Assembly (NCBI GenBank): GCA_044222185.1
Contig: JBGANV010000007.1
Location: forward strand, 1-64,000
DNA: 64,000 nucleotides
Reading direction: 5' to 3'
Source of the DNA: Planctomycetota bacterium
GTDB taxonomy: Bacteria > Planctomycetota > GCA-002687715 > CAIWVZ01
Of this stretch, positions 19,315-37,403 are shown one piece after another. The notes under the pieces were generated by a model. It made no database searches. It saw only the letters and a list, made by a program, of their open reading frames with translations, and was not told the DNA's origin. The translations under genes were made by a program, and so were the position numbers. Positions within the stretch are counted from its first letter, which is position 1, and each line of letters begins with the position of its first letter.

Positions 19315-22143
19315 TCATTCGTCGAGTAGCGCGCGGAGCAGCCCCGCCTGATAGGTCTGGGGGGAGTTGTTCTCGGACATCAGCTCCAGCGCGCGGCGCG
19401 CCGAGCGGCGCGCGCCTTCGACGTCCTTCAACCGCTTGCGAATGATCGCCGATGCCGTGTGCGCGGCGATTTCCTCCGCAGCGTCCAGCGTCACCTCGCC
19501 GCGAGACGCGTCCACGACGATGCGGTCGAGGGACGCGACCACGCCAGGCCCGCCGGTTTCGAGTGGCACCGTCTCGCGAGCCTCCGCGCTTTCGTCGATC
19601 ACGAGCGCGTCGTCCCATTGTTCGGGCGGAAGGTCCGCGAAGATCACGCGAGCGGCGAGCACGTTCGCGATGTGGATGTCGATCTTCGGATTGGTCGGGT
19701 CGGCGTGTCGCGCGGCCTGCGCGGCATTCCACGCGTCGGCACGTCGACCGAGCAGCCGGAGCGCGCGCGCCTCGATCAACCGACAGTCGGCTTCGAGCGG
19801 GCGATCTCCGCAGGCCCGTGCGGTGCGTGCGAGCGCTTGGGCCCGCGCGGCGATCTCGGTGAACGTCGATGCCGCGGCGCCGGACTCCCGCATCGGCATG
19901 AGCTCGCCCGCGCCCGGCGCGGCCGCGAAGTCCGCCTGCAGTTGCATGCCGTCGATGCGGCGTCGCTGTGCGGGAAGGCGAGCGCACTCGCGGGCTCGAT
20001 CGAACTCGCGTCGCGCGTCGGCCGTCCGGCCCTCCGCGCACGCGAGTGCCCCGGAGAGCATTCGCAGCCAGGGTGCGTCGGGCCACGTCGCCAGGTCCTT
20101 CGCGAGACGCGTGCGGAGCTCGTCGGCGCTACGCGTCCGGCGCATGAGTTCGAGCCGCTGCTGTTCCAGGGCGAACCAGGGCCCGGCCAGCGAGGTCTTC
20201 CGGAACGCTTCATCGGCCTTGTCGAGACAGATCGCCGCGTTCGCGAGATTGCCCATGAGCATCTCGCAGTGAGCCACACGCTGCCAGGCGACGTGCCGAT
20301 GTCGAGCATGCTCGGTGAGGCCTTGCGCCCAGGCCCGGGCCACGCCGATTGCACCGGCCGCCTCCGCCATGACGCTCGATGCGTACCGCGCGCGGTAGTC
20401 CTCGGGGCGGATCAGGAGCGCGGCGTCGATCTCGGCACGCTGGTGCTCCAGCGGGAGACCCGCCAAGCGCATGGCGCACGCCGCGAGCACGTGGTCCGTG
20501 GCCGGATCTTCGGCGTCGACCCCTTCTGCCGGGCGTGATGTGGCCGACGCGGCGAGCCCCGGGCGTGGCCCCCTGGAGGCCGGTCCGATGTCGTCGACGA
20601 TCGGGGCGATCACGCTCCGCGTTCGCGGGAACCGACCCGTGCTGGCCAACCGGTCGAGCATCGGACGCGCCGTCGAGGCGTCGAACGTGGCGACGGCCGC
20701 CACCAGGCGCCCGAGAAGCGCAGGTGGGGACTCGGCGAAACGCGCGTCCGCCATGGCGAGCTCGGCGCCGAGCTCTTTCAGTTCGTCCGCGTTGATGGCG
20801 TCCGCCGATCCCTGCACGACGTCGAGCATCGCGTCGAAAGCCTCGCGCGCCCGCGCCGCGCGCTCGAGCTCCGTGATGGCCGGCGACGCAGGATCGAGAG
20901 CCCGCAGGCTCTCGATGTCGCGCCGGCCTTGCACGTAATCGCCGCCGTCGATCGTGGCGGCCGCGAGCGCCGTGGCCGACGAGACCATGGCTCCATGTCG
21001 CCTGTTGGCGCTCCAGGAAAGCGCCCCGAGTGTCGTGATGGCGATCAACGACGCGGCGGCGATCGTCGACGTCAGTGCGTGGCGGCGAACCTTGCGCCAC
21101 GCTCTTGCGGCCAGTCCAAGCGGGCGGGAGTGGATGGGACTTCCGGCCAGATATCGATCGAGGTCGTCGGCCAGGTCCAGGGCCGTCGCGAACCGTCGCT
21201 CGGGGTCCTTGTCGAGGGCGCGCGCGATGATCGTCTCGAGGTCGCGGTCCGATGGAGCCAGGCCGAGCCGGGGCGGCTCCTCCACGAGGATCCTGCGAAT
21301 CAAGGTGTCGACCGAGTCCTCGTCGAATGGCGGAGATCCGGTCAGGGCGTCGTGGAGCGTGGCGCCGATCGAATAGACGTCCGTTCGCGGGTCGAGCACC
21401 GCCGAGCGCTTGCGGAGACGCTCGGGCGCCATGTAGGCGAGCGTGCCCGCTGCCGATCCTTCACCCGTGATCGTGACGTCGCCGGCCGCGCGCGCGAGAC
21501 CGAAGTCCGCGAGGTAGGGATGATCTCCGTCGAGAATCACGTTCGCGGGTTTGATGTCGCGGTGGAGGACGCCGATGTCGTGCGCGGCCGCGGCCGCCTG
21601 AGCGACCGCGACGCCGATCCGTGCGGCTTCCCGGGGCGCGAGCGGTGTCTCCAACTCGGCGAGGCTCGGGCCCGACAAGAGCTTCATCGCGATGAACATC
21701 GCGCCGACGTCCTCGCCGATCGCGTAGATCGGGACGATGTGCGGGTGGTCGAGCGCCGCCGTGATCTCGGCCTCCCGCCGGAATCGCAGCCGATCCGAGG
21801 TCGTGAGCGGATCACCGCCGCGCAGGACCTTCAGCGCGACGTGGCGCCCGAGGGATTCCTGCCGGGCGATGAAGACGCGCCCCATGCCGCCGGACCCGAT
21901 GACCCGGAGCAACGTGAAGTCCCCGAGGCGCGACGTCAGGAGCTTCTCGTCGGGAACGATCTCGGGAGCCGTGATTCGCGCGAGTGAGCCCGTGACCTCC
22001 GCCTCGCGGCGGACGAGCCGGGAGAACCGCGTGAGGAGATGCGCGGCCCCCGCGCAGTGCTCCTCGATCTGCGGATTCTCGCCCGCTTCGTGGCGGGCAT
22101 ACCAGGACGCGAGCAGGTCTTGGAGCGTCTCGTCGTCTGACAT
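19315..22143 (-). CDS. Hanks-type Ser/Thr protein kinase with TM and TPR-like C-terminus
   Basis: IGSGGMGRVF, VALK, HRDIKPAN, DFGLA, GTLAYMAPE, DVYSIG. Confidence 0.93.
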   Translation of the reverse strand: MSDDETLQDLLASWYARHEAGENPQIEEHCAGAAHLLTRFSRLVRREAEVTGSLARITAPEIVPDEKLLTSRLGDFTLLRVIGSGGMGRVFIARQESLGRHVALKVLRGGDPLTTSDRLRFRREAEITAALDHPHIVPIYAIGEDVGAMFIAMKLLSGPSLAELETPLAPREAARIGVAVAQAAAAAHDIGVLHRDIKPANVILDGDHPYLADFGLARAAGDVTITGEGSAAGTLAYMAPERLRKRSAVLDPRTDVYSIGATLHDALTGSPPFDEDSVDTLIRRILVEEPPRLGLAPSDRDLETIIARALDKDPERRFATALDLADDLDRYLAGSPIHSRPLGLAARAWRKVRRHALTSTIAAASLIAITTLGALSWSANRRHGAMVSSATALAAATIDGGDYVQGRRDIESLRALDPASPAITELERAARAREAFDAMLDVVQGSADAINADELKELGAELAMADARFAESPPALLGRLVAAVATFDASTARPMLDRLASTGRFPRTRSVIAPIVDDIGPASRGPRPGLAASATSRPAEGVDAEDPATDHVLAACAMRLAGLPLEHQRAEIDAALLIRPEDYRARYASSVMAEAAGAIGVARAWAQGLTEHARHRHVAWQRVAHCEMLMGNLANAAICLDKADEAFRKTSLAGPWFALEQQRLELMRRTRSADELRTRLAKDLATWPDAPWLRMLSGALACAEGRTADARREFDRARECARLPAQRRRIDGMQLQADFAAAPGAGELMPMRESGAAASTFTEIAARAQALARTARACGDRPLEADCRLIEARALRLLGRRADAWNAAQAARHADPTNPKIDIHIANVLAARVIFADLPPEQWDDALVIDESAEARETVPLETGGPGVVASLDRIVVDASRGEVTLDAAEEIAAHTASAIIRKRLKDVEGARRSARRALELMSENNSPQTYQAGLLRALLDE

Positions 22144-24343: not shown

Positions 24344-24508
24344 CCGACCCCGCGCGACGCTCAATCGAAGTCCGCAAGCCGCCTTCGTAGAGTGCACGGA
24401 CCTTCGCGACTCAGGGGAGGCGCGTGGTCGCAAGGCCGACGAAATCCGGTGGAAACTCCGATTTCGCGGCTCCGTTTCGTTCGTTGGGAATGCGGGAAAG
24501 GACGGCGG

Positions 24509-27500
24509 ATGCGAGCGACGGACACCACGGCCCTGGTGGTGGGCTGCGGCGCGGCGGGAGTCACGGCCGCGATCGGTCTTGCGCGGCGTGGAGTTTCGGT
24601 CGTCGTCGTCGAAGGTGCGCCCTATCCGGGAGCCGAGAACTGGTCCGGGGCGGTCTACTTCTGCGAGAACCTCGTACGACCGGAGATCCTCGGGCCCCGC
24701 CTTTTGGACCAGACGGCCATCGAACGTCGAGTCGTCAAGCGCGGCCTCCTGGCCACCGACGGACGGGTTGCCGTCGGCGCGGCCATTCACTCGCGGGCGA
24801 CGTTCGAGCACTGTTACACCGTCCTGCGACCCGTGTTCGACCACGATCTCGCGCAGCGGGCGCGGCAGCTCGGGGCCGAGATCCTCTCCAACACGACGGC
24901 CCTGGCGCTCATCCGTGACCAGGACCGAGTGCTCGGCGTCCTCACCGATCGCGGCCCCATCTACGCCGACGTCGTGTTTCTGGCCGAAGGAGACGCCAGC
25001 CACCTCGTCGCGCGCGAAGGTCTCGAGTCGAAGCCGGCGTCCGAGCGCGGCCTTGCCGAGCCCGAGTTCCTCCAGGGAATCAAGGAAGTCCTCGCTCTGC
25101 CGCCGCAAGTCATCGAGAAGCGATTCGGCGTCGGCGCGGGCGACGGCGCCTGCTACGAGATCCTGCTCCGGAACGGATCCTTCGGCGGGCGTCCCGTGCC
25201 CCTGAATGCGGGCGCGTTCCTCTACACGAATCGTGAGAGCCTGAGCCTCGGCCTGGTGGCGCCGCTCGAGAACCTGAAGCAGTTCGAGGGCGAGCACAAC
25301 CGGCTCATGGAGTGGTTGAAGCAGCTTCCGGCGCTCCGGCCCCTGCTCGAAGGTGCCGTCCAGCAGTCGTTCGGCACGAAGCTCATCCGCGGCGGTGGAT
25401 ATCGGGAGATGCCCCGCGTCGTTCTCGACGGGCTCGTGGTCGGCGGAGCCGCCGCCGGGCTCGGCGTGGATTTTCCCTGCCCGAACTACACGGGACCCGC
25501 CACGTTCTGCGGCTGGCAATTCTCCGAGGCCGTCAGCCGGATCGTCACCGAGAAGCGCTCATTCGACGCAGCCACGCTCACCGAGCTGTATCAGAAGCCG
25601 GTCGAGGCGAGCCACTACTTCGCGGATGTCCGCCACCTCCAGGACTGGCCGCACTTCGTCACGAGCACCCGCGAGTTCTTCGGCCGTCAGGTCGACCTCG
25701 TAGCCGCATCCGCCCACATCCTCACGGATCCCGAGGCCGGTCGCATCGGGCGGCACTTCCTCTTCCCGCGCAACCTCGTCGAGACGTTGCCGTGGGGCAA
25801 GGTCGGAGCGTTCCAGGCAGACGTGCGGCGAGCGGGCGATGCACTGGGCATCTCGCGTGGTGCCGTCGGCGCGGCACTCGCGTCGCTACCGCGGTGGATC
25901 CTGAACGTCGTCCTCCAATTCCTGCCCTCGCGGTCTCACTCCGGGGCCGCGTTCGAACCCATCTTCGTCGCAGATCCGGCGACGAAACGCCTCGCACCGC
26001 CCCTCAGTGTGCGGTTCATGCGCTGGCGTTTTGCCGGTGCCATGGCGGATGCGCTCCACCATCTCTATCGCAACGACCCCGTCCCGGTGTCCGAGAAGCT
26101 CGTCGCCGCCCGCGGGGCGATCCTGCGCCGCGTGTCGTTGCTCGACGTCGTCGTGCTTCCCCTCGTGCTGCTGTTCAACTACCTCGTGGGTTGGGTCCAC
26201 CAGCTCGGGTTCAAGCTCTGGGTCGGGCTGACCAAGCCGTCCCTCGCGCGCATCCTCGCCACTCCGTTCTTCAAGGTTCGGGAGTCGGCGCGGGCACTCG
26301 GTGACTACGGACGCACGCGCGAACTCGTCGCCCACGACGACAAGCTCGCGATGATCACGTATCGCAGCGACGAGCGGAGTCACATCGCGTTTCACGTCGG
26401 ATACGACAAGGTCGGTCTGCCCGACGTCGCGTCCAGCGTCTTCCACGTCTGTCCGGCACACGTCTACCGGCGCGAGCAGGACCAGTCTCTCGCCAGCTCG
26501 GTGACGGTCCTCCACGAGAACTGCATCAAGTGCGAGACGTGCTGGCGGGCGGATCCCGTGCGTGTGGACTGGGGTCGTACGCGGGGCCAGCGGCTCGTCT
26601 TCGAGGCGTATTCGTCGGCGGACTCCTGGCTCGGCGAATCGCTGGAGGCCGCGGCCGTCAGCGACATCGAACGAGGGGACCAGCCGCAGGGGACGCCGTC
26701 GCCAAATCGTGCGAACGAGCCCATCGTCCCGGTCACCATCGACGACGCGCGCCGCGAGCGCGTGGTCGCGAGGCTCGGGCGGCTGCGGGCGGCCGTGGCC
26801 ACGTTCCGTCCGCTCCACGAACGGCTGCCCGCCGTCATGCTCGGCGCGGATCAGGAACTCCTCGACGGGATCCTGGGGGAGATCTTCGGAGCTCTCCAGG
26901 AAGTCGAGGACGACCTGCGGCCGCTTCCAGACGAAGGCCTGAAGCTCCGGCTCGATGCGATCACCGCGTGGCGTCATCTGGCGGCCACCCGGCGCAAGAC
27001 GCGGAGGTTCTTCCAGGTCGAGGCCGATCTGGAGCTCCTGCGCATCCACCACCTGCCGGATCTGGAGGCTCGACTCGGGATCGAAGCGCCGGCTGCGCCG
27101 AAGAACCCACCAGATTGGGGCCACGTCCGTGCGTCGCTGCGCGCGGAACTCGAGCGGCGCCTGGACAAGCACGTCATCACGGCGACCGAGAAGGGCCGCG
27201 CTCCGACGACGGAGGCTCTCGACGTGCTCCGCTGGGGAATCGGCGGCCTCATCGCCGCGGGCGCGAGCCAATTGCCGCCGCTGCCGGGTACGACCGCGCG
27301 TGACATCTTCGTCGAGGAACTCGCGCGCGTATCGCCGTCGCTCGCGATCACGGCCGTCCAGCACCTTCTCGCCGTCGACTGCCTCACACGATTCGTCGTC
27401 GACTCCGACGCGGAGGATCTGGCCGAGATCCAGGACGCCGTGACGCGTGTGAAGGCGCTGGCAACCGTCGTGATCGGCGATTTCGATCTGGACGCGGATG

Positions 27501-30500
27501 GCGCACTCCGCGGCGAGGCCCAGGTAGCTTCGCTCGGCGGCGCGAAGATCGTGTTGATCGAGGTCGACGGAAACCTGGCGCTCGTCGCTCCGGGAGATCC
27601 GGGCCTGACGATCGAAGCGCCGGGATCACTCGGCCTCTGTGGTGCCGGACTCGCGCGCGTTCGCGCGGACGGCGCACGACCCAGGGCCGTGTTCGGGCCG
27701 ATCTCCGCAACTCGCTGGAAGAACACGCGCGGGGATCTGGACCTCGTCGCGGTCGTCCGCGGCATGACGGATTACTTCGCGTCGCGGGCCCTCGATCACG
27801 CCACGAGTCGCGTCCAGTTCCCGGGACTGTTCCGCGACGTGCGCGGGCGCGACGGGATCGCCAAGTTCGGTGCCGTGCAGGCGATGCTCGCCGGGATCAC
27901 CTCGACGCGCGCGCTGCTCGAGAGTCTCCGGGGAGCGCAAGTGCATGCGGCAGCAGCGGCCGCCCTGGCGACCGAGCTGCTGGGACCCGGGCCGCGCAGC
28001 GTCAGCTATCTCGCCGGCCAGGTCCTCGGTGGTACGGCGTTTTCCGAGGAGGATCCGGTCTGTCGCCACTTCCGCGACGCGGCCACGCTCACGCGGTACC
28101 CGCGCGACGCCGAGACGTCGGCCCGCCGTCACGGACGCCGGCAGTCGCGCCTCGTCCGCGTTCCGGCTGCGAGCGACGCGGGCGTCATCATGGGGCTCGA
28201 TCGCCGCGCCATCGACCTGAAGCGGCGTCCGACCGACCCCGACGACCTGGCGACGCATCTCGATGCGGTCTGGAGCGGGTGGCGCGTCCTCGTGGACGCG
28301 ATGATCGCCGCGGACGACGCGTCACTCGATGCCGCCGCTGGCGACTTGGGACGACTCACGCTCGTGACGGGCGCGTTCCGCATCTTCGCCGACCGCGTTC
28401 GCGAAGCACGGTTGCGGGGTGACGTCGATCCCATCGACGACGCAGCCCTGTCGAGCTGGGCGCGTCGCCTCGCGGCGAGTGCCCGCAAGCTTGCTCGCCG
28501 CCTGCCGGACGTCACGGACCTGGTCGAACTCGGGCGCCGGCTCCTTCGCGACGGAGCCGCGGAAGGCCCGACGGGCGCGGTCGGTGCGAGCTACGCGGAC
28601 TACCTGGACGCCAAGCAGGAGTTCACCTCAGGCGATCTCGTCACGCGGCCGGGGATCCCCGGCGACCTCTGCTACACGCCGGAGTTGCTCGAGGCCGACC
28701 CGTCCCTCGCCAAGGCGCATTCGGATGCGTACGCGGCGTTCCACGGCCGTTGGCGCGAGCATCTCTTCGACGGGCTCTCCTATCCACGCTACGTGGAGCG
28801 CCAGCACCACGTACCGCTCGTCGACGTGCAGTGGCTCCTCGACATGGGCTGCTTCCGCATGGTCATCCCCGAGCGCTACCTCGGGCAAGGCAAGAAGAAG
28901 GCCTACTACTACGTCACCTGCACCAACCTGATGCGTCACGGCGATCCGGCGCATGCACTGATCGTGATGGGGAGCACGAGCATCGGGACGACGCCGATCC
29001 TCATCGGCCTCGATCAGGACCTGCCGGCGGCGCGCGGTGCCATCGAAGAGGCGTTGAAACACCCCGAGCGGGTACGCGACGTCTCGGCGCGGATCGATCG
29101 ACTCCTCCGCATGGCCGACGGGGCCGACGCACTGAAGATCAAGGAACCCTTCCAGGAACTGGCCGGCGTCGTGAAGAAGTCGCTGCAGGGCGAGAAGGTC
29201 CTGCGGCTCGTCTTCCAGGGGTTCCTCGACGCGTTCATGGATGCGGGCCGGGCTGGGTTGAAGCGAGATCTCGCCGGGTTCCGTGACGGGCTCGTCCGCG
29301 CGCAGGCGGCCCTGGCCGGGTTCGAAGAGCGGTTGCGTGCCGAGCTCGACTCGATTCCGCACCGCGAAGCCATGCACGGCTTCTACCTGAAGAGCATCTC
29401 GTCCGGTCGCATCAGCGCATTCGCGTTGACCGAGCCGAGCGCCGGTTCGGACACGGCGCGCATCCGCACACGCGCCGAACCCGTCGAGGTCGATGCGTGG
29501 CCCGATCCGCGCGGGTTCTACAGCTTCGTTCCCGCCGGCGGGAAGGAGACGCGCAACCTGTTCACCGTGGACCGCCTCGAATTCTCCGAGAGCGGCCTGC
29601 GGTTCGTCACGCCCGACGGAACGCGCGTGCCCGTCGAGGTCCGCGACTTCCGCTCAGCCGACGGCGACGGCGAAGCCCGATACCGCTACGTGATGCTCGA
29701 CGGGCAACGCGTCGACGTTCACGACATCGGGCGGGTCACGCACGCGGATGGAAAGGTCAAGTTCCCGTACTTCCGCGTGAACGGCGCAAAGATGTGGATC
29801 ACCAACGGCTCATGCGCAGGCGTGATGTCGTTGTATGCGCGCACGGATCGCGGTCCCACGGGCTTCATGCTCGACTGTCACCAGGAAGGTCTGAGCATCG
29901 GCAAGGACGAGGAGAAGATGGGCCAGCGAGGCTCGTCCACGAACGAGCTGGCGCTGAAAGACGTCCGCATCCCGGTCGATGCCGTCATCGGCATCGAGGG
30001 ACGTGGGCAGGAGAACGCGCTCGAGACTTTGAACGTGGGCCGCGCCGGGCTCTCGATCACTGCCGTCGGTCTCATGCACGAAGTGGTGCACGACGTCCAG
30101 GATCTCTTCGCCCGAAACGCACGCGAGGCGACGAACGCGGACCTCTACCAGCTGGGCAAGATGGCGCTGGATCTGGCGGGCTCAGAGTCGCTGGCCTACC
30201 AGTTGGTCGGGCGCTTCGATCACCACGGGACGAAGTCGATCCGCGTGGAGTCGGCCATCGCGAAAGCCGAGACGTCCGAAGCTCTGCATCGCGTGCTGCG
30301 TCGGGCCGAACGCATTGCGGGCCCGACGGCCGTGCTCGCGGAGAGTGAACTCGAGAAGCGTCGTCGCGACGCGCGCGTGCTCACGATCTATGAGGGCACG
30401 AACGAGGTGCAGCGCTTCCTCATCCTGAAGGACCTGATCGACGTGCTCCCGGTCGAGCTCCCGCCCATCGAGCGCGGCGGAGTGTCGACGGCCGGCGTCG

Positions 30501-32830
30501 CCGCGGCCATGGATTCCCTTGCCGTCGCCCGCGAGAGCGTGGCGAAGCAGGCGGCCGCAGTTCGGGCGAACCTCGGGTCGCGCGCCTGGCAGAACGTCCA
30601 CCTCCAACCGTGGTTGTTCCCGCTGGTCGAGACGTACATGGCGACCGCCGTGCTCTCTGCGTCCATGCGCAGACTCGCGCTCGCCCAGAAGCTCATCACG
30701 AGCGAACAAGGTCGGGCTCGCGTCGAGTACCTCGACCGTGCGGTTGCGCTCTTGTCGCGGTCCGTCGCGGCGCAGGACAAGCTCGCCGAGTTCCAAGCCG
30801 AAGCCGAGCGCATCAAGCGTGGCGGCGATACGTCCGCCCAATCGTTGGCCGATCGAGCGATCCTCGCCCACGAAGCGCGGCACGTGCGCAGGGCTCCTCC
30901 GCCGCCGTCCGTGCTGCGGCGCCCGGTCCGTGTACTCGTCGTCATCGACCCTGAACCGGCGGTCGCGCCGCACCCGCGCATCCGCGGGCGACATCTGAGC
31001 GAATCGCTCATCGAATTGGGACGAGCGGACCGCGGCGTCCTCGCCGCCGCATTCGCGCTGCGCAAGGCTGGTGACGTGGACGTCACCGTTCTCGGTGCCG
31101 GTGGAGCAGCCGCCGTCGGCGTCATGGAAGAGTGCCTCGCGCTCGGGGCCGACCGGGCGTTCCTCGTGAGCCTCGGTACCCGCTCGCTGCTCGCGCCCGA
31201 CCTCGCGGAGTTCGGCGCGGAGATCATCCGCACGCAGGAGGAGCTCCGCGGGACGTTCGACGTGGTCCTCGGCGCGGATCGCAGCTCGGAGCTTCTGCTG
31301 CCCCTCGCGCGACGGCTCGATCTGGACGTCGTCCGCGTGGCCGAGACGGTCGCTCTCGAGGTCGACACGGACGACGTCGTCGTGCGCGCGCGACTGGCGA
31401 AGCCGGCGACGCTGGTTGCGGTCCCGGGCCCGGCCCTCGTGCTCATGGCCGCCGAGGTCTCGGCGGACGAGCTGCGCTTCGGGACCGAAGGGTGGCGCCG
31501 TGCGCGCGGCGAGGCGGTGCACGTCATCGACTTCGTCCCCCGCGACGCGATCGACGGCTCGTTGATCCTCGCGAGCGCGGCAACCTCCGAGGGAACGCGC
31601 GAGGTCGCGGGAGGTCAACTCACTGCGGCCGACGCGGCCGCATCGTTCGCACGCGAGGCTCAGCTCGGTGGCGGTGCGGGCGAGCGCGCTCGGCCTCACG
31701 CTGGCGCGTTCGAAGAGAAGACCGTGCCCGCGTTCGTCGCGCGCAATGGCGTGCTGGCGATCGTGATGATGAGCGGCACCGATGGCCTGCGATCCGACGC
31801 GGTGTCGGTCGCGCGGGCCGGGCAGTGGTACGCCGATCACGTGCAGCGTCCTTTCGGCGTCATCGTGCTGACATCGGCCGCGGATGACGTCGCCGTGCGC
31901 GAAGCCGTGGGCGCGCTCGGCGCGGCGGTTCCGCGCGGAGACATCGGCGTGCTCGTCGAGCCGCTCCTGCCGTCGCTTCCCGATGGAGCGCTCGGCAAGT
32001 ATCTCGAGTCCCTCACGTCGGAGGCGACCGGCTCGCTGTTCTTCGGCGCCGAGTTGCGGGCCGCGGCCCTGCTCGCGTCCGAAGGCCGCACGTTGAACGT
32101 GGGCGGGCTGCCCGTCGTGAACGGCATCGATCGCATCGAGACGATCGGCGGCAGGGTGGTCCTCTCGGGTGCGCGGCACGACGGTCGCGCGCGCTACGTG
32201 GTCGAGTGGGACAGCCTGCGGATCTTCCAACTCATCGCGCGCGGGGAGATGGAAACAGGTGGTGACGTGCCGGCCGCATTCGAGAGGGGAGAGCGTCTGG
32301 TCGCGCGGGTGAGCATCGCATCGCCCATCGTCGACGACGCCGACGACCTCGTCCGTGCGCTGCGCGAGGCCCAGGGTGAGCTCGGAGTCGGTTCCCTCGC
32401 CGACGCGGAGTTCATCATCGACGTGGGATACGGCGTCGGTAGTCGAGACGGCATCGAGGAGGTGATCGACCCACTGAAGGCAGCCCTCGAGCGCATGGGC
32501 GTCCCCAAGGTGACGATCGGCGCGTCGCGCAAGGTGACGCAGGACCTGGGGCTCCTGCCCGACTCGTTCCAGATCGGACAGACCGGCGTGCCCGTCAACC
32601 CGAAGATCATGCTCGCCATCGGGATCTCGGGAGCGCCCCAACACCTGAACTACATCGGAGAGCGGGCGGCCATCTTCGCATTCAACCGCGATCCCGAGGC
32701 ACCGCTGATGGTCCTGAACCGCAGCCGGCCGAAGCCGCGCGTTTTTCCGATCCACGGCGACCTCTTCGCCGAGGTACCCAAGTTCGTCCGAGCACTCGAG
32801 TCCGAGATCGCAGTGGGCGCCCGCGGTTGA
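24509..32830 (+). CDS. Giant fusion: FixC/ETF-QO flavoprotein + FixX-like 4Fe-4S + degenerate acyl-CoA dehydrogenase + acyl-CoA dehydrogenase + EtfB + EtfA (~2773 aa)
   Basis: GAAAGGA SD. GCGAAG..VEGAPYPGAENWSG, YTVLRPVFD, GIKEV, FLYTNRESLSLG (FixC). CPAHVY..NCIKCETC (FixX). FALTEPSAGSD, NGAKMWITNG, EEKMGQRGS, LNVGR, RRDARVLTIYEGTNEVQR (ACAD). LALGADRA (EtfB). LADAEFII..G.G, GASR, QIGQTG, GISGAPQH, FNRDPEAP (EtfA). Confidence 0.92.
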   Translation: MRATDTTALVVGCGAAGVTAAIGLARRGVSVVVVEGAPYPGAENWSGAVYFCENLVRPEILGPRLLDQTAIERRVVKRGLLATDGRVAVGAAIHSRATFEHCYTVLRPVFDHDLAQRARQLGAEILSNTTALALIRDQDRVLGVLTDRGPIYADVVFLAEGDASHLVAREGLESKPASERGLAEPEFLQGIKEVLALPPQVIEKRFGVGAGDGACYEILLRNGSFGGRPVPLNAGAFLYTNRESLSLGLVAPLENLKQFEGEHNRLMEWLKQLPALRPLLEGAVQQSFGTKLIRGGGYREMPRVVLDGLVVGGAAAGLGVDFPCPNYTGPATFCGWQFSEAVSRIVTEKRSFDAATLTELYQKPVEASHYFADVRHLQDWPHFVTSTREFFGRQVDLVAASAHILTDPEAGRIGRHFLFPRNLVETLPWGKVGAFQADVRRAGDALGISRGAVGAALASLPRWILNVVLQFLPSRSHSGAAFEPIFVADPATKRLAPPLSVRFMRWRFAGAMADALHHLYRNDPVPVSEKLVAARGAILRRVSLLDVVVLPLVLLFNYLVGWVHQLGFKLWVGLTKPSLARILATPFFKVRESARALGDYGRTRELVAHDDKLAMITYRSDERSHIAFHVGYDKVGLPDVASSVFHVCPAHVYRREQDQSLASSVTVLHENCIKCETCWRADPVRVDWGRTRGQRLVFEAYSSADSWLGESLEAAAVSDIERGDQPQGTPSPNRANEPIVPVTIDDARRERVVARLGRLRAAVATFRPLHERLPAVMLGADQELLDGILGEIFGALQEVEDDLRPLPDEGLKLRLDAITAWRHLAATRRKTRRFFQVEADLELLRIHHLPDLEARLGIEAPAAPKNPPDWGHVRASLRAELERRLDKHVITATEKGRAPTTEALDVLRWGIGGLIAAGASQLPPLPGTTARDIFVEELARVSPSLAITAVQHLLAVDCLTRFVVDSDAEDLAEIQDAVTRVKALATVVIGDFDLDADGALRGEAQVASLGGAKIVLIEVDGNLALVAPGDPGLTIEAPGSLGLCGAGLARVRADGARPRAVFGPISATRWKNTRGDLDLVAVVRGMTDYFASRALDHATSRVQFPGLFRDVRGRDGIAKFGAVQAMLAGITSTRALLESLRGAQVHAAAAAALATELLGPGPRSVSYLAGQVLGGTAFSEEDPVCRHFRDAATLTRYPRDAETSARRHGRRQSRLVRVPAASDAGVIMGLDRRAIDLKRRPTDPDDLATHLDAVWSGWRVLVDAMIAADDASLDAAAGDLGRLTLVTGAFRIFADRVREARLRGDVDPIDDAALSSWARRLAASARKLARRLPDVTDLVELGRRLLRDGAAEGPTGAVGASYADYLDAKQEFTSGDLVTRPGIPGDLCYTPELLEADPSLAKAHSDAYAAFHGRWREHLFDGLSYPRYVERQHHVPLVDVQWLLDMGCFRMVIPERYLGQGKKKAYYYVTCTNLMRHGDPAHALIVMGSTSIGTTPILIGLDQDLPAARGAIEEALKHPERVRDVSARIDRLLRMADGADALKIKEPFQELAGVVKKSLQGEKVLRLVFQGFLDAFMDAGRAGLKRDLAGFRDGLVRAQAALAGFEERLRAELDSIPHREAMHGFYLKSISSGRISAFALTEPSAGSDTARIRTRAEPVEVDAWPDPRGFYSFVPAGGKETRNLFTVDRLEFSESGLRFVTPDGTRVPVEVRDFRSADGDGEARYRYVMLDGQRVDVHDIGRVTHADGKVKFPYFRVNGAKMWITNGSCAGVMSLYARTDRGPTGFMLDCHQEGLSIGKDEEKMGQRGSSTNELALKDVRIPVDAVIGIEGRGQENALETLNVGRAGLSITAVGLMHEVVHDVQDLFARNAREATNADLYQLGKMALDLAGSESLAYQLVGRFDHHGTKSIRVESAIAKAETSEALHRVLRRAERIAGPTAVLAESELEKRRRDARVLTIYEGTNEVQRFLILKDLIDVLPVELPPIERGGVSTAGVAAAMDSLAVARESVAKQAAAVRANLGSRAWQNVHLQPWLFPLVETYMATAVLSASMRRLALAQKLITSEQGRARVEYLDRAVALLSRSVAAQDKLAEFQAEAERIKRGGDTSAQSLADRAILAHEARHVRRAPPPPSVLRRPVRVLVVIDPEPAVAPHPRIRGRHLSESLIELGRADRGVLAAAFALRKAGDVDVTVLGAGGAAAVGVMEECLALGADRAFLVSLGTRSLLAPDLAEFGAEIIRTQEELRGTFDVVLGADRSSELLLPLARRLDLDVVRVAETVALEVDTDDVVVRARLAKPATLVAVPGPALVLMAAEVSADELRFGTEGWRRARGEAVHVIDFVPRDAIDGSLILASAATSEGTREVAGGQLTAADAAASFAREAQLGGGAGERARPHAGAFEEKTVPAFVARNGVLAIVMMSGTDGLRSDAVSVARAGQWYADHVQRPFGVIVLTSAADDVAVREAVGALGAAVPRGDIGVLVEPLLPSLPDGALGKYLESLTSEATGSLFFGAELRAAALLASEGRTLNVGGLPVVNGIDRIETIGGRVVLSGARHDGRARYVVEWDSLRIFQLIARGEMETGGDVPAAFERGERLVARVSIASPIVDDADDLVRALREAQGELGVGSLADAEFIIDVGYGVGSRDGIEEVIDPLKAALERMGVPKVTIGASRKVTQDLGLLPDSFQIGQTGVPVNPKIMLAIGISGAPQHLNYIGERAAIFAFNRDPEAPLMVLNRSRPKPRVFPIHGDLFAEVPKFVRALESEIAVGARG

Positions 32831-32938
32831 ACGGGATTCGTCGCGGCGCGGCCCAGTCCCCGCGTCGCGACGTGTCTTTTGACGTGCGGAGCCGCGAGGA
32901 CGCGTTCGTCAGGTAAGCTCCTCCCGAGCTTCCGAACC

Positions 32939-33565
32939 ATGGCCGCGCGCAACGCTTCATCCTCGTCCCGACCCTCGTCCGCCGATCCTTCGGCCGATCT
33001 CCTCCACCGCTGGCAGGACGAAGCGGACCTGGATGCTCTCGACGATCTTCTGCGGCGAGAGGTTTCGATCCTCAAGGAGCTGATCCAGCGCAAGGCGCGT
33101 GGAATGCTTCGGCCCTCGGCCGGTGCCACGGACGTCGCTCATGAGTCGGTGTTGGCCTTGCTGAAGGTGAAGGAGCCGCCCGCCTTCGACGACCCGCGGG
33201 CACTGCGCGCCTACCTGTGGAAATCCGCCTGGCGGCTGCTCATGCAGCGCATGCGACGTCCGCGCGCGGCCGCCCTTCTGCGTCCCGAGGCCGTCGCCTC
33301 GTTGTCGGAGAATGCGACCGTGCTCCGGTTGGGGGGCATGGGGCGGCTCGATCATGAGGAGCGGATGGTCGCGACCCGCGTCGCCATGACGCTCCTGAAG
33401 GACGAGGAGCGTCGTCTCCTCGAGCACTTCTACTTCGACGAGTGGCCCATCGCGAAAGCCGCCACCGAGCTCGGGATTTCCGAGGAGGCGGCGGCCATGC
33501 GACTGAGCCGCGCGCGGCGTCGCCTGGCGCAGCGGCTCGTGGCGTGGCACGACGCCGTGGCCTGA
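32939..33565 (+). CDS. ECF sigma factor
   Basis: DLLHRWQ...ALDDL, ATDVAHES, LRAYLW.SAWR, L..EERRLL..FYF...IAKAA.ELGISEEAAAMRLSRARRRL. Confidence 0.85.
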   Translation: MAARNASSSSRPSSADPSADLLHRWQDEADLDALDDLLRREVSILKELIQRKARGMLRPSAGATDVAHESVLALLKVKEPPAFDDPRALRAYLWKSAWRLLMQRMRRPRAAALLRPEAVASLSENATVLRLGGMGRLDHEERMVATRVAMTLLKDEERRLLEHFYFDEWPIAKAATELGISEEAAAMRLSRARRRLAQRLVAWHDAVA

Positions 33566-33725: not shown

Positions 33726-36700
33726 ATGTTGGATTCGTTCAGTCGACCCACATCGCAGCGCCACGGACGGCGCTGTTCCGTCAGCATGCTGTCGATCGCC
33801 ACGTTCCTCGTCGCCGCAACGCTGGCTCGAGGGCAAGCGTTCACGCCGATTTCCGGAACGCTGTTCGACGGCTCAGGCGGACCCCTCCTCGCCAACACCA
33901 CGTACGTCGTCACGGGAACCATCACGGTGCCCGTCGGGCAGACGTTGACGATCAACTCGGGCGCCGGAGTGAAGTTCAACAGCGGTCTCGAGATGGTCGT
34001 GAACGGGACGCTCAACGTGAACGGGACGGCACCTGCGCCGGTTCGTTTCACCTCATTTCGCGACGACTCGGTCGGAGGAGACACGAACGGCAACGGGGCC
34101 TCGTCGGGCGGTGCGGCGGACTGGCGCGGCCTGACCTTCAACTCGACCGCCACGGTCACGATGACTCAGGCGTCGGTGCGTTACGGCGGCTCGGCATTCT
34201 TCCCCGGGATCGGGAACCTCGGCGCCAACATGACGCTGTCGAACGTCACCGTCGGCAACTGCTACGACGCCGGCCTGAGCCTCAACGGCCAGGCGGCCAC
34301 GGTCTCCGTCTCGAACTGCACGTTCACGGCCAACGGTGGCTACGCCGTCCAGGCGGCCCGACTCGACCAGTTGAACGGGTTCACGAACAACTCGGCGAGC
34401 GGAAACGGCGTGAACACGATCCGGATCAGTGTCGGCACCCTCGCCGTGAATCGCACGATCACGGCTGCCAACTGCATGAACGGCGCCGTCTTCGTCGACA
34501 CCTCGATCCAGGTGAGCACGGGTGTGACGCTGACTTTGCAGGCGGGAACCGCGTTCAAGATGAACGGCGGCACCGGCGTGACCGTGGACGGCACGCTCAT
34601 CACGAACGGCACGGCGGGCTCGCCCGTCTACTTCACGTCGTTCCCCGATGACTCGGTCGGAGGCGACACGAACAACAACGGCGTGAGCTCTGGTTCCCCG
34701 ACACAGTGGCTCGGGGTCACGCTCAACTCGACGGCGTCCGCGAGCAGCCTGACGCGGCTCGTCACGCGATACGGCGGTGGGTCCTTCTTCCCTGGCATCC
34801 GTCTTTCAGCCTGCAACGCAACCCTGAACGCGTGCCGCATCGAGAACTTCTACGACCACGGCCTGAACTGCTCGAACAACAGCCTTCCGACGGTCACCGG
34901 TTGCACGTTCACCGGCAACGGCAACGTGGCCGTCACCGGCGTTCAGCTGCAGGCGATCCCCGGCTTCACGAACAACTCGGCGAGCGGAAATGGAGGGAGC
35001 TTCATCCAGATCACCGATTCGACGATGACGGGCAGCAAGACGATCATTCCCGCGAACTGCATGAACGGCGCGCTCGTGGTGAACACGCCGCTCTCCGTAC
35101 CGGCGGGTGCGACTCTCACGATGGCCGCCGGGACCTGCATGAAGTACCAGTCGAACTACCGGTTCCAGATCGACGGGACGCTGCTGGTGAACGGATCGAG
35201 TGGCACCCCCGTGATCATGACCTCCATCCAGGACGACTCCGCGTTCGGTGACACGAACAACAACGGCCCGTCTGCGGGCTCGCCGACCCAATGGGCCGGC
35301 GTCCTCTTCATGTCGACGTCGGATGCCAGCGTGATCCACGGACTCGAAGTCCGCTACACGGGCGCGTCCTTTCTGGCGGGCATCGAACTTCGCGACGCCG
35401 ACATCGTTCTGGAGAGCAGCAAGGTCACGTCGACCTACGCCGACGGAATCAACCTCAACGCCGGCGGTGCGAACGCCACGATCAACGCGTCCATCAGCAA
35501 CTGCACCCTCACGTCGTGCAACGGGTATGCGATCAACAACGTGGCGCTCGACGCGGTGCCGCATCTGCTGAACAACACGGGGAGCGCGAACGGCTCGACC
35601 TCTGTCCACGTGACCGTGGGCACGCTTGCGGCCTCGACGCTCACGGTTGGTCCGGCGAACGGGATGAGCGGCGTTTTGTTCTTCTCCGACAGCCTCACGG
35701 TGCCGGCGGGGCGTACGCTCGCGATGCAGGCGGGTCTGATCTGCAAGTTCTCCGGCGGTTTGAACGCCAGCATCACCGGGACGCTGCTTGCTGCGGGTAC
35801 CGCGGCGAGCCCGATCTACTTCACCTCGGCTCAGGACGACTCCGTCGGCGGCGACACGAACGGCAACGGCCCGTCGAGCGGGAGCCCCACGAACTGGCAG
35901 GGCATCTACTTCAACACGGGATCGTCCGGAAGCCTCCTGACCCAGGTGACGACCCGATTCGTGGGGGCCAGCTTCGTCGCGGGTGCGGTATTCGCCGGGG
36001 GATCGCCGACGCTGTACACCTGCACGTTCAGTGACGGATTCGCCGCCGGCCTGAACTTCACCGACTCGTCGTCGCGGCCGACTGTCGTCGAGTGCCATCT
36101 CGTCAACAACGGTGGCTATGCCGTCGACAACGTGCCCGTGGATGCGCTCCAGGGCTTCGCGAACAACTACGCGACCGGCAACCACACGGACGTGATTCGC
36201 GTGACGAACAGCACGCCGGTCGGAGATCTCTTCATCGGGCCGCAGGCCGGAATCGCCATCTTCATGGCGGCGGGCCTGTCGATCCCAGGGGGACGCAGCG
36301 TCGACGTCCTGCCCGGGACGATCATCAAGATGGGCGGTGGCACGGGCGTCGACGTCACCGGCTCGCTCGACGTCCGCGGCACCGGATACGAGCCCGTGGT
36401 CTTCACCTCCTACGGCGACGACAGCTACGGCGGTGACTCGAACGGGAACGGCCCGAGCACCGGCAGCCCGACCGATTGGCGCGGCCTGACGTACACGGCG
36501 GGTGCGACGGCATCGTCGGTCGAGAACGTGATCATCCGCAACACCGGAAGCGGGTTCTTCGCTGCGCTCAGCCTCCAGTCGCCGAACGTCTCGGCTCGCG
36601 CGGTGCGCGTCGAGCGCTGCTTCGACCACGGCATCACGGCGTCGGCGCTCTCGGGTGCGGGCATGAACTGGGTTGCGAACGCCTGCAACAACGCGGGCAT

Positions 36701-37403
36701 CCGCCTCACCGGTGGTGGATTCGACGTCGTGCACGCGACCGTGACGGCGTGCGGCACGGGTGTGAACGGAACCGGTTGGACGGGCAACGTGCGCAACTCG
36801 ATCGCGTGGGGCAACACGACGAACTTCGCGGCCATTCCCCAGGCCCGCGTCTTCAACTCGGACGGCGCCTTCGCCGGCATCAACGGCAACCTGAACGTGG
36901 ATCCCCAGTTCGTCGCACCTGCGACGGGGGACTACCACCTCCAGGGCAGCTCGCCCTGCATTGGCAACGGTGACGTCGCCGTCGCCATCGCCACCGAGAA
37001 GGACTGGGACGAGCAGCCTCGCCTGATCGACTCCACGTTGAGCGGGACGGCAGCACCGGAGATGGGTGCCTTCGAGCGCCCGATCTGGCAGATGACCGTG
37101 AACGGCGTGTCGCGGCTCGGCGCGACCGTCACGTTCCAGGTGAACGGCGCACCGGGAACGTCGTTCTACGTGCTCGGAGCTCTGGATGGGTCGTTCTACC
37201 TCGGCAACTACGGGATGGGCCTCGCGGGGTTGAGCCCGCTGATCCTCGTCGCCCTTCCGGTCGGGACGCCGTTCTCCGTGACGATCCCGCAGGATCTCAA
37301 CCTCCTCGGCCTCATGGCGGGCATCCAGACGCTGACGGCGCTCGGCAGCAACCCGGCGCTCGGCAGCACGACGAACCTCTACCGCGCCGTCGTCCGGCCG
37401 TGA
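33726..37403 (+). CDS. Secreted right-handed beta-helix repeat protein with C-terminal domain
   Basis: Signal peptide ending LARG-Q. Five large repeats marked by FTSxxDDSxGGDTNxNG..W.G. NLNVDPQFV..DYHLQ.SSPCI..G (choice-of-anchor-Q-like). Tail IPQDLNLLG..IQTL..TN. Confidence 0.88.
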   Translation: MLDSFSRPTSQRHGRRCSVSMLSIATFLVAATLARGQAFTPISGTLFDGSGGPLLANTTYVVTGTITVPVGQTLTINSGAGVKFNSGLEMVVNGTLNVNGTAPAPVRFTSFRDDSVGGDTNGNGASSGGAADWRGLTFNSTATVTMTQASVRYGGSAFFPGIGNLGANMTLSNVTVGNCYDAGLSLNGQAATVSVSNCTFTANGGYAVQAARLDQLNGFTNNSASGNGVNTIRISVGTLAVNRTITAANCMNGAVFVDTSIQVSTGVTLTLQAGTAFKMNGGTGVTVDGTLITNGTAGSPVYFTSFPDDSVGGDTNNNGVSSGSPTQWLGVTLNSTASASSLTRLVTRYGGGSFFPGIRLSACNATLNACRIENFYDHGLNCSNNSLPTVTGCTFTGNGNVAVTGVQLQAIPGFTNNSASGNGGSFIQITDSTMTGSKTIIPANCMNGALVVNTPLSVPAGATLTMAAGTCMKYQSNYRFQIDGTLLVNGSSGTPVIMTSIQDDSAFGDTNNNGPSAGSPTQWAGVLFMSTSDASVIHGLEVRYTGASFLAGIELRDADIVLESSKVTSTYADGINLNAGGANATINASISNCTLTSCNGYAINNVALDAVPHLLNNTGSANGSTSVHVTVGTLAASTLTVGPANGMSGVLFFSDSLTVPAGRTLAMQAGLICKFSGGLNASITGTLLAAGTAASPIYFTSAQDDSVGGDTNGNGPSSGSPTNWQGIYFNTGSSGSLLTQVTTRFVGASFVAGAVFAGGSPTLYTCTFSDGFAAGLNFTDSSSRPTVVECHLVNNGGYAVDNVPVDALQGFANNYATGNHTDVIRVTNSTPVGDLFIGPQAGIAIFMAAGLSIPGGRSVDVLPGTIIKMGGGTGVDVTGSLDVRGTGYEPVVFTSYGDDSYGGDSNGNGPSTGSPTDWRGLTYTAGATASSVENVIIRNTGSGFFAALSLQSPNVSARAVRVERCFDHGITASALSGAGMNWVANACNNAGIRLTGGGFDVVHATVTACGTGVNGTGWTGNVRNSIAWGNTTNFAAIPQARVFNSDGAFAGINGNLNVDPQFVAPATGDYHLQGSSPCIGNGDVAVAIATEKDWDEQPRLIDSTLSGTAAPEMGAFERPIWQMTVNGVSRLGATVTFQVNGAPGTSFYVLGALDGSFYLGNYGMGLAGLSPLILVALPVGTPFSVTIPQDLNLLGLMAGIQTLTALGSNPALGSTTNLYRAVVRP

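Follow-up and report, generated by a model that had tools for sequence, protein, structure and literature searches.

Acyl-CoA dehydrogenase (ACAD), electron-transfer flavoprotein (ETF) and the quinone reductase that completes the chain are normally found as four or five separate proteins. The own-subunit flavin contacts of ACADs, made by the motifs TEPxxGSD and WIT/SN, are known from structures of MCAD and SCAD, and in MCAD-type dimers the motifs R-x-x-F-G and Q-x-x-G-G reach across to the flavin adenine dinucleotide (FAD) of the neighbouring subunit. This division of labour is separated between subunits in the α2β2 enzymes ChsE4-ChsE5 and ChsE1-ChsE2, for which passages of PMC11153573 describe an α chain that binds isoalloxazine and carries the Glu and a β chain that contacts ADP-ribose. 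On the quinone side, a section of PMC10734219 traces electrons in Thermotoga maritima EtfABCX from the electron-transfer FAD (ET-FAD) to the EtfX clusters, the EtfC FAD and menaquinone. An excerpt of PMC12042025 describes a bifurcating ETF of Sulfolobus acidocaldarius (SaETF) in which EtfB is followed by EtfA in one chain of approximately 610 amino acids (aa). The present analysis concerns a gene in a 64,000-nucleotide stretch of a Planctomycetota genome (contig JBGANV010000007.1, positions 1 to 64,000; the window) that encodes, in a single polypeptide of 2,773 aa, a FixC-type domain, a hydrophobic part, a four-Cys segment, a degenerate ACAD, a catalytic ACAD, EtfB and EtfA. From motifs and structure models, we assign a probability of about 0.68 to the reading of this protein as a self-contained, membrane-associated, non-bifurcating acyl-CoA:menaquinone oxidoreductase that would serve the FadE step of β-oxidation with three FAD and one [4Fe-4S] cluster per chain.

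The fusion gene extends on the forward strand from an ATG at 24509, with AGGA nine bases upstream, to a stop at 32828-32830 (24509..32830), inside a frame that is free of stops from 24392 to 32830 in the list of open reading frames (ORFs). Residues are numbered here from this ATG and coordinates are those of the window. The translation is identical to protein record P0002, in agreement with an earlier account drawn from the letters and ORF list only (the sequence-only reading), which had described a single uninterrupted ORF of about 2773 aa. Long frames on the opposite strand, such as 30182-32755 (minus strand), were rejected as genes, since frames of this kind are expected by chance at the G+C content of 0.66–0.72 that prevails throughout.

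A protein search returned 242 matches at E ≤ 1e-3 with lengths of 1,525–4,853 aa. The best 120 of these 242, which were listed and aligned and are the basis of all counts out of 120 below, ranged from 2,311 to 2,912 aa and did not differ in Pfam content, so that the architecture proposed by the sequence-only reading recurs at full length far beyond chance. Alignment occupancy was at least 0.59 in every 50-aa window (n = 120). A scan of one genome per species gave 219 stretches encoding a relative, from which 75 loci were kept; 58 of the 75, from different assemblies and phyla, contained an uninterrupted frame of at least 2,200 aa with the same domain order, while most of the others ended at a contig edge. 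Near-identical DNA was present in activated-sludge and bioreactor runs from seven studies; no RNA run appeared among those listed, an absence that speaks neither for nor against expression. Contigs from four of these runs, belonging to two studies other than the possible source, covered 29–30 of 30 bins without a single insertion or deletion, although no one contig spanned the gene, and none showed the stops or frameshifts at domain junctions that would betray an assembly join. The 28 in-frame substitutions relative to these contigs (16 synonymous, 12 non-synonymous) included no stop, and the ratio indicates purifying selection on the fusion gene. Short joints in contigs of other runs, with sides of 20–24 letters, were discounted as noise from other organisms. 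Because the same long frame recurs in many loci and the contigs of other studies lack insertions and deletions, a fusion created by assembly is excluded for practical purposes. The chance that the ORF is an assembly or annotation artefact joining separate genes is negligible; no evidence in its favour was found, the assembly that holds the window being itself in 16 contigs.

The first domain, FixC-type and presumably quinone-reducing, occupies aa 1-432 (24509..25804), with NCBIfam and PDB matches over aa 7-393 and an N-terminal GxGxxG. NCBIfam PRK10015/FixC models matched it at E 7e-45 and 8e-38, covering positions 7-379 of approximately 428, and its scores of 130 and 153 bits against curated cut-offs of 610 and 466 (PRK10157 and PRK10015) mark it, by sequence, as a distant relative of FixC outside the curated PRK10157 and PRK10015 subfamilies. 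The nearest solved relative was 7koe_C, the EtfC/FixC chain of Thermotoga EtfABCX (E 1e-33), followed at a distance by the mitochondrial-type ETF:quinone oxidoreductase (ETF-QO) 2gmh (E 4e-7). The FAD-motif residues G12, G14, G17 and E35 were invariant in the 42 sequences from which conservation of GxGxxG was taken.

An all-helical linker (aa ~395-600) connects the FixC-type domain to the next one and contains a hydrophobic helix (aa 542-575; 26132..26233; Kyte-Doolittle 2.31), a putative anchor at the membrane or quinone site that AlphaFold modelled as one long helix. The hydrophobic stretch that the sequence-only reading had placed at about 25850-26250 is present, but the helix lies only at its far end. 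A 19-aa window with a Kyte-Doolittle value of at least 1.6 was found in 96 of the 120 homologues and of at least 2.0 in 76, the sequence itself not being conserved; the stretch is single, with a median of 21 uncharged residues, and a second such window appeared in only 12 of the 120. The helix probably anchors the FixC end to the membrane monotopically.

The adjoining segment (aa ~610-700; 26336..26608) is putatively of the FixX or ETF-QO [4Fe-4S] type and contains Cys 648, 672, 675 and 678 (26450-26542) in the arrangement C648-x23-C672-x2-C675-x2-C678, all four of which were invariant in 120/120 sequences. Each of the other Cys residues of the protein was present in at most 92% of these sequences, and none formed a motif. 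Pfam Fer4_ETF_QO scored 18.8 bits on this segment in one scan and 24.8 bits in another, against a cut-off of 24. The eight cluster Cys of T. maritima EtfX have no full counterpart here, as only the four Cys are conserved.

The following region (aa ~746-1416; 26744..28756) has a degenerate ACAD fold of the VLCAD type. It received no match in a Pfam scan of the whole protein and, as a single sequence, only a marginal one against the PDB (E 0.03), while a profile built from 53 sequences of aa 395-1425 matched VLCAD at E 5e-13 and other ACADs as well, some over full length. In an AlphaFold model of the region (pLDDT 81.3, pTM 0.69), Foldseek recognized VLCAD, ACAD9 and ordinary ACADs over approximately 570 columns with probability 1.00 and TM(target) of 0.52–0.71. 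The identity of the fold is thus settled by profile and fold search only. Residues R1101, Q1103, F1104, P1105, G1170, Q1171, G1174 and G1175 were conserved in 120/120 sequences, whereas no conserved Glu was found at the site of the catalytic base (1196-1199), where positions vary among the 120, and neither a TEPxxGSD-like nor a WITN-like motif was present in the consensus of the N and β domains. The second ACAD-like fold noted in the sequence-only reading is therefore real but degenerate, and from these residues is best filed as a pseudo-enzyme subunit rather than as a second enzyme. Residues 969-1010, with which the β domain of this fold begins, are missing from verrucomicrobial members.

A word-indexed search of proteins of 30–1,524 aa found no stand-alone form of the degenerate ACAD at E ≤ 1e-10. 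When the search was made exhaustive, 89 cluster representatives matched at E ≤ 1e-3 (74 at ≤ 1e-10 and 14 at ≤ 1e-30), with no ordinary ACAD among them. The long proteins hold the match at the same relative place, and the short ones, in which it begins with the first residues or sits at approximately 700-1000 after a FixC part, look like contig-end fragments, although some may be split genes. From these searches, the degenerate ACAD seems confined to the fusion architecture.

The catalytic ACAD (aa ~1420-1985; 28766..30463) was matched over its N, M and C domains by Pfam (PF00441, 75.2 bits against a cut-off of 22.4; PF02770, 54.5 against 33.3; PF02771, 27.7 against 22.9) and by SCAD at E 9e-33, with E1962 aligned to the Glu of SCAD IYEGT. 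The motifs LTEPxAGSD, GxKMWITN and RDxR..IYEGTxExQ were each present in 120/120 sequences, and the N and β domains carry inserts of approximately 130 and 90 aa, respectively. In contrast with the degenerate fold, this ACAD has lost R-x-x-F-G and Q-x-x-G-G from its C-terminal domain, one being gapped and the other replaced by E1934 in 119/120 sequences. A helical C-terminal extension, VLCAD-like, follows at aa ~1986-2120 (30464..30868; helices 20-146 of model m6c7d3ee46fa0), with weak ACAD C-domain matches at profile positions 49-113.

The two folds thus appear, from their motifs, to be complementary halves, the degenerate ACAD keeping exactly the motifs that the true ACAD has lost. A model of the degenerate ACAD (860-1230) in complex with the catalytic ACAD (1425-1985) and FAD gave an ipSAE of 0.84 (0.84, 0.82 and 0.85 in separate runs), whereas the best of three controls gave 0.00; 58 of 80 solved complexes attained the mark used, as did 2 of 110 mismatched pairs. 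The runs shared at least 96% of contacts, partner pLDDT was at least 86, and the predicted interface set residues 1102-1105 and 1170-1181 of the degenerate ACAD against 1644-1648, W1763, 1801-1805 and 1953-1966 of the catalytic one. As ACAD homodimers are solved, the model is taken as support for the pairing and not as proof of it.

An asymmetric pair of this kind also suggests, by analogy, that the mechanism might be as proposed but the substrate a bulky or unusual acyl-CoA, such as a steroid, hopanoid or other polycyclic side chain. The pair mirrors the α2β2 ACADs that passages of PMC11153573 link to cholesterol side chains, the two inserts are large, and six other ACAD C-terminal domains encoded by the host could serve ordinary substrates. 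Both ACAD folds, on the other hand, resemble VLCAD, an enzyme of long straight-chain substrates, and the informative neighbours described below are generic fad genes, a lipase-like hydrolase, a glycerophosphodiester phosphodiesterase (GDPD) and GlpD. A specialized substrate is accordingly thought unlikely.

The C-terminal part of the protein was aligned separately (alignment A3, 52 sequences) and modelled at a pLDDT of 84.5, and Foldseek matched both ETF subunit folds in the model. The EtfB-like module, corresponding to ETF domain III and arm (aa ~2140-2387; 30926..31669; A3 profile positions 167-412), spanned whole EtfB chains in the profile search (4kpu_B, 3e-24; 1efv_B, 1e-21) and matched EtfB chains by Foldseek with TM(target) of 0.57–0.71. 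EtfA domain I (aa ~2402-2615; 31712..32353) was located from profile positions 443-640, which correspond to the N-terminal halves of EtfA chains, and from Foldseek, and EtfA domain II, the electron-transfer FAD domain (aa ~2630-2773; 32396..32827), from Pfam ETF_alpha (E 1e-16). The complete EtfA (aa ~2402-2773; profile positions 443-793) matched at E 3e-32, and domain II matched EtfA chains in the PDB at E 8e-13, with its GASR motif aligned to that of human EtfA. In the single sequence Pfam PF01012 scored 21.7 against a cut-off of 26.7 and PF00766 scored 60.7 against 27. Domain scans thus recovered the FixC, EtfA and EtfB parts that the sequence-only reading had named, EtfB by profile, whereas Pfam used alone missed the degenerate ACAD and left PF01012 below its cut-off. 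The domain order agreed among profile, Pfam and fold searches, and every coordinate given in that reading falls within the domains mapped here.

Conservation within the ETF part was uneven. Of the 24 invariant columns in A3, 22 were in EtfA domain II, including R2674 of GASR, which we take to be the counterpart of human αR249, and two were in the ACAD extension. None was in EtfB or EtfA domain I, where seven columns reached at least 90% and none of the seven was Arg. This distribution bears on the possibility that the protein is a bifurcating ETF, in which a second FAD in the base formed by EtfB and EtfA domain I would couple NADH, ferredoxin, acyl-CoA/enoyl-CoA and quinone. Bifurcating ETFs are among the best-scoring PDB matches to each ETF half, the FixC and FixX parts resemble those of bifurcating EtfABCX, and the single-chain EtfB-EtfA of Sulfolobus is characterised as bifurcating in the excerpt of PMC12042025. 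Profile scores were, however, almost equal for bifurcating (CarE, 3e-32; C. difficile EtfA, 4e-32; 4kpu_B, 3e-24) and canonical ETFs (1t9g_R, 2e-23; 1o94_C, 5e-24; 1efv_B, 1e-21). A working bifurcating site should be conserved, yet 0 of the 24 invariant columns lie where it would be. There is one four-Cys motif as opposed to the two clusters of T. maritima EtfX, and the ACAD and the quinone reductase would be two high-potential partners with no evident low-potential one. Bifurcation is regarded as very unlikely. Because invariant columns occur in EtfA domain II but not in EtfB or domain I, the ETF part is read as one working flavin (ET-FAD) on a structural, non-bifurcating base.

Gene order in related loci was informative for one clade, here called Gemmatales-type. 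A FadB-like hydratase/3-hydroxyacyl-CoA dehydrogenase is encoded directly upstream of the fusion gene on the same strand in L013, L044, L045, L062 and L065, and approximately 1.9 kb upstream in L047; Pfam confirmed the FadB-like gene in L013 and L047. The full order was acyl-CoA (AMP) ligase, thiolase, FadB, fusion and α/β hydrolase in L044, thiolase, FadB, fusion and hydrolase in L065, and ligase, FadB and fusion in L062. Since the fusion gene stands among ligase, thiolase, FadB and hydrolase genes, it takes the place of fadE in a β-oxidation cluster of this clade. In verrucomicrobial loci, GDPD and a GlpD-like dehydrogenase adjoin the fusion gene (GlpD-like and GDPD genes at L035:19493-21337, minus strand, and L036:14503-15498, minus strand), a neighbourhood that hints at phospholipid breakdown. 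The fad and GDPD/GlpD contexts each represent one clade and are therefore not independent observations. Synteny conserved across all clades was sought among these loci but not found, neighbours being clade-specific.

Taken together, these results are consistent with a path in which the FAD of the catalytic ACAD would dehydrogenate acyl-CoA, E1962 acting as the base, and single electrons would pass to the FAD of a mobile EtfA domain II. From this ET-FAD they would reach the single [4Fe-4S] cluster (C648, C672, C675, C678) and then the FAD of the FixC-type domain and menaquinone in the membrane. The degenerate ACAD would pair in-chain with the true ACAD as a pseudo-heterodimer, giving in-trans contacts to the ADP-ribose part of its FAD. 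Because it would only complete the FAD site of the true ACAD, one active site per chain is expected. EtfB and EtfA domain I would form the structural ETF base rather than a bifurcating NADH site. The three flavin sites (FixC, true ACAD, EtfA domain II) and one four-Cys cluster expected by the sequence-only reading agree with the motif tests. Its proposal of a self-contained acyl-CoA:quinone oxidoreductase, an inference then as now, has held up as the best-supported one, with added support from fadD-fadA-fadB synteny in one clade.

Several observations weigh against this assignment. At standard potentials, electron flow from acyl-CoA to menaquinone is uphill (about -10 mV versus -74 mV). The -74 mV figure is given in a section of PMC10734219. 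Homologues P0018 (2,633 aa) and P0024 (2,573 aa) lack aa 559-593 and with them most of the hydrophobic helix. A span of approximately 21 uncharged residues, if truly transmembrane, would set FixC and the rest of the protein on opposite sides of the membrane; FixC would then be cut off from the cluster, so that the helix must be assumed to be monotopic or buried. The Fe-S segment was modelled, without its partners, at low pLDDT. With hhalign, the degenerate ACAD showed little likeness to the catalytic ACAD of the same family (E 0.053, probability 1%), and the pass of the complex model may reflect likeness to solved ACAD homodimers that the predictor remembers, rather than this particular pair; the complex job also differed from its calibration in using its own alignment and a ligand. 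With respect to gene order, no neighbour in the window points to β-oxidation, and the six loci with fad synteny all belong to one tree clade.

With the opposite direction of flow, the protein would be a (mena)quinol-driven enoyl-CoA reductase. Quinol-driven enoyl-CoA reduction has been proposed for the split E. coli sets CaiA with FixABCX and YdiO with YdiQRST, and standard potentials favour electron flow from menaquinol to enoyl-CoA. The greater nearness of the FixC part to FixC of EtfABCX than to ETF-QO would fit such a role, as would NCBIfam results for the ACAD part, in which the model for the acryloyl-CoA reductase AcrC (E 1e-37) ranked beside FadE (E 5e-40), and the presence in the host of a canonical EtfA and ETF-QO already available for the oxidative route. 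The gene set of the Gemmatales-type clade (ligase, thiolase, FadB, hydrolase) is, however, catabolic, and near-identical DNA came from activated sludge and bioreactors, although oxygen status is not settled by that origin. As all flavoprotein steps are reversible, sequence cannot decide direction; on balance the reductive one is considered improbable, and the oxidative acyl-CoA:menaquinone reading is retained.

The host genome (7.08 Mb, 16 contigs, 93.8% complete) encodes a canonical ETF-QO (G000:C8:114341-114646, L078; 585-aa frame, Fer4_ETF_QO 131.7 bits) and, approximately 100 kb away, a separate EtfA (G000:C8:214218-214460, L076; 338-aa frame, 126.7 bits). Because both are present in the same genome, the fusion is, as far as gene content shows, an addition to the ordinary ETF route and not its replacement, and for the same reason a dedicated, insulated channel, as the sequence-only reading envisaged, is plausible. 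Six further ACAD C-terminal domains and four FadB-like genes elsewhere were also noted in this genome, as were two MqnA/D homologues, pointing to synthesis of menaquinone by the futalosine route.

Within the window, the neighbours of the fusion gene are a Ser/Thr protein kinase of 942 aa (19315-22143, minus strand), an extracytoplasmic function (ECF) sigma factor of the Sigma70_ECF (PF07638) type directly downstream (32879-33565, plus strand), a right-handed β-helix protein of 1,225 aa after the sigma factor (33726-37403, plus strand) and a LysR regulator. No link of the sigma factor or β-helix protein to the fusion gene was evident, and the latter looks monocistronic. Kinase-like ORFs recur close to the fusion gene at 12 loci spread over several clades, probably owing to the abundance of the kinase family in these phyla. 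A promoter scan upstream of the gene found nothing on its strand. A terminator-like hairpin (32839..32872, plus strand; consensus scan) with a 13-bp stem, 11 G-C pairs and a T-rich tail begins 9 nt after the stop; it is a hint only, as the count of pattern matches for the whole region was no higher than in shuffled sequences. Just 3' of the stop, contigs of three other runs carry two G>C differences, at 32834 and 32845; one of the two falls in the hairpin's 5' arm.

The 75 loci were labelled as 25 Planctomycetota, 18 Verrucomicrobiota (including one Lentisphaeraceae), 15 Gemmatimonadota, 11 Acidobacteriota, 1 Nitrospirae and 2 'Alcaligenaceae', with 3 unlabelled. All were records of metagenome-assembled genomes (MAGs), and ten clusters looked up for a cultured carrier returned MAG names only. 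The architecture is widespread among public MAGs. Carriers came from soils, sediments and sludge, many being uncultured, and the public annotation of the gene is no more specific than 'acyl-CoA dehydrogenase family protein' or 'FAD-binding protein'. Among sampled Planctomycetota genomes, 11 of 301, including that of the host (G000), matched at E ≤ 1e-50, a floor, given the stricter filter applied.

A FastTree phylogeny was calculated from a fast alignment of 53 full-length rows and 2,411 columns, leaving out rows that contained X or were shorter than 2,450 aa; the tree is unrooted, drawn with a midpoint root, and has several long branches. Gemmatimonadota (9 rows) and Acidobacteriota (7 rows) each formed one group, whereas Verrucomicrobiota accounted for two label changes and Planctomycetota for at least six, and the six-row clade that contains the window's gene was sister to Gemmatimonadota with support of 100. 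The lack of agreement between gene tree and phyla is compatible with transfer of the module as a unit; the tree suggests, but does not prove, whole-gene transfer between phyla. Two loci labelled as uncultured Alcaligenaceae (L013 and L062) were nested in the Gemmataceae/Gemmatales clade with support of 100 and shared its fadB-fusion synteny, a placement likely to reflect mis-binning, mislabelling or recent transfer into a proteobacterium. Two contigs of MAG isolate CPC9 (L002, L016) hold one full-length copy (49% identity) and, cut off by a contig end, the first 953 residues of another (53% identity), which may be a paralogue or the result of a strain mix.

A more speculative extension of the acyl-CoA:menaquinone reading, which we hold to be doubtful, is that the protein is a horizontally mobile plug-in respiratory module, by which a single gene would provide a cell that uses menaquinone with a private wire from one acyl-CoA pool to the membrane. 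A dead/live ACAD pair would present one active site to a tethered ETF head that swings from the ACAD flavin to the FixX-type cluster and back, and tethering, rather than new chemistry, would let the thermodynamically awkward transfer from acyl-CoA to menaquinone run fast without leaks. If so, this would be the first system to show the donor-ETF-acceptor shuttle in a single particle. More generally, the fusion offers a natural object of fixed stoichiometry for cryo-EM of the whole path, including alternation of the ETF head between donor and acceptor, and a dead ACAD that is kept solely to complete a flavin site in trans would show clearly how tandem duplicates can subfunctionalise. Because carriers are annotated only in generic terms, the lipid-oxidation capacity of Planctomycetota, Verrucomicrobiota, Gemmatimonadota and Acidobacteriota is probably under-read.

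No published description of the whole fusion was found in the full-text literature, lists in supplements not being covered, in accordance with the statement of the sequence-only reading that none was known. Garcia Costas et al. in 2017 reportedly defined ETF groups and may list fused forms. Mycobacterial EtfD is an unrelated membrane Fe-S protein that receives electrons from a separate ETF, with no fusion involved. As described in parts of PMC13083937 and bioRxiv 10.1101/2025.05.14.654035, it represents another link of β-oxidation and ETF to the respiratory chain in an organism that uses menaquinone. The nearest published fusion found was SaETF, which has the same EtfB-EtfA order but whose ACAD, ETF-Qor or FixCX partners are, in the excerpt of PMC12042025, products of neighbouring genes.

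The comparison with T. maritima EtfABCX (7koe) is closer on the quinone side, as this complex includes the best structural relative of the FixC part, delivers electrons to quinone by the same route and is membrane-associated, as is putatively the fusion. By analogy, the second half of the proposed path would follow the high-potential branch of EtfABCX set out in the section of PMC10734219. In that account EtfABCX consists of four subunits with two EtfX clusters and an NADH-fed bifurcating FAD and is without ACAD, whereas the fusion is one chain that includes an ACAD pair, has a single four-Cys motif and lacks a conserved site for bifurcation. On the acyl-CoA side, the mycobacterial α2β2 ACADs, such as ChsE4-ChsE5 (FadE26-FadE27), show the same division of motifs as the catalytic and degenerate ACADs, with a similar predicted interface. 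The ChsE partners are, in the passages of PMC11153573, products of separate genes that form a heterotetramer, while those of the fusion are tandem-fused halves, VLCAD-like with C-terminal extensions, joined to ETF and FixCX. The pair may thus work like the ChsE4-ChsE5 type, although membership of that family is not claimed.

Compared with the classical chain from ACAD through EtfAB to ETF-QO (1efv, 1t9g/2a1t for MCAD:ETF, 2gmh), the fusion has the same predicted sequence of cofactors, namely ACAD FAD, ETF FAD, one [4Fe-4S] cluster and FAD. Its C..CxxCxxC is of the single-cluster type of Fer4_ETF_QO, and the catalytic IYEGT and the FAD motifs of ETF domain II are kept. It differs in being one polypeptide, in having a FixC-like quinone reductase and an extra dead ACAD, and in the poor conservation of its ETF base. 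The parts are thus familiar modules and the chemistry probably ordinary, while what appears new against the literature searched is a complete ACAD-ETF-quinone-reductase chain in one polypeptide.

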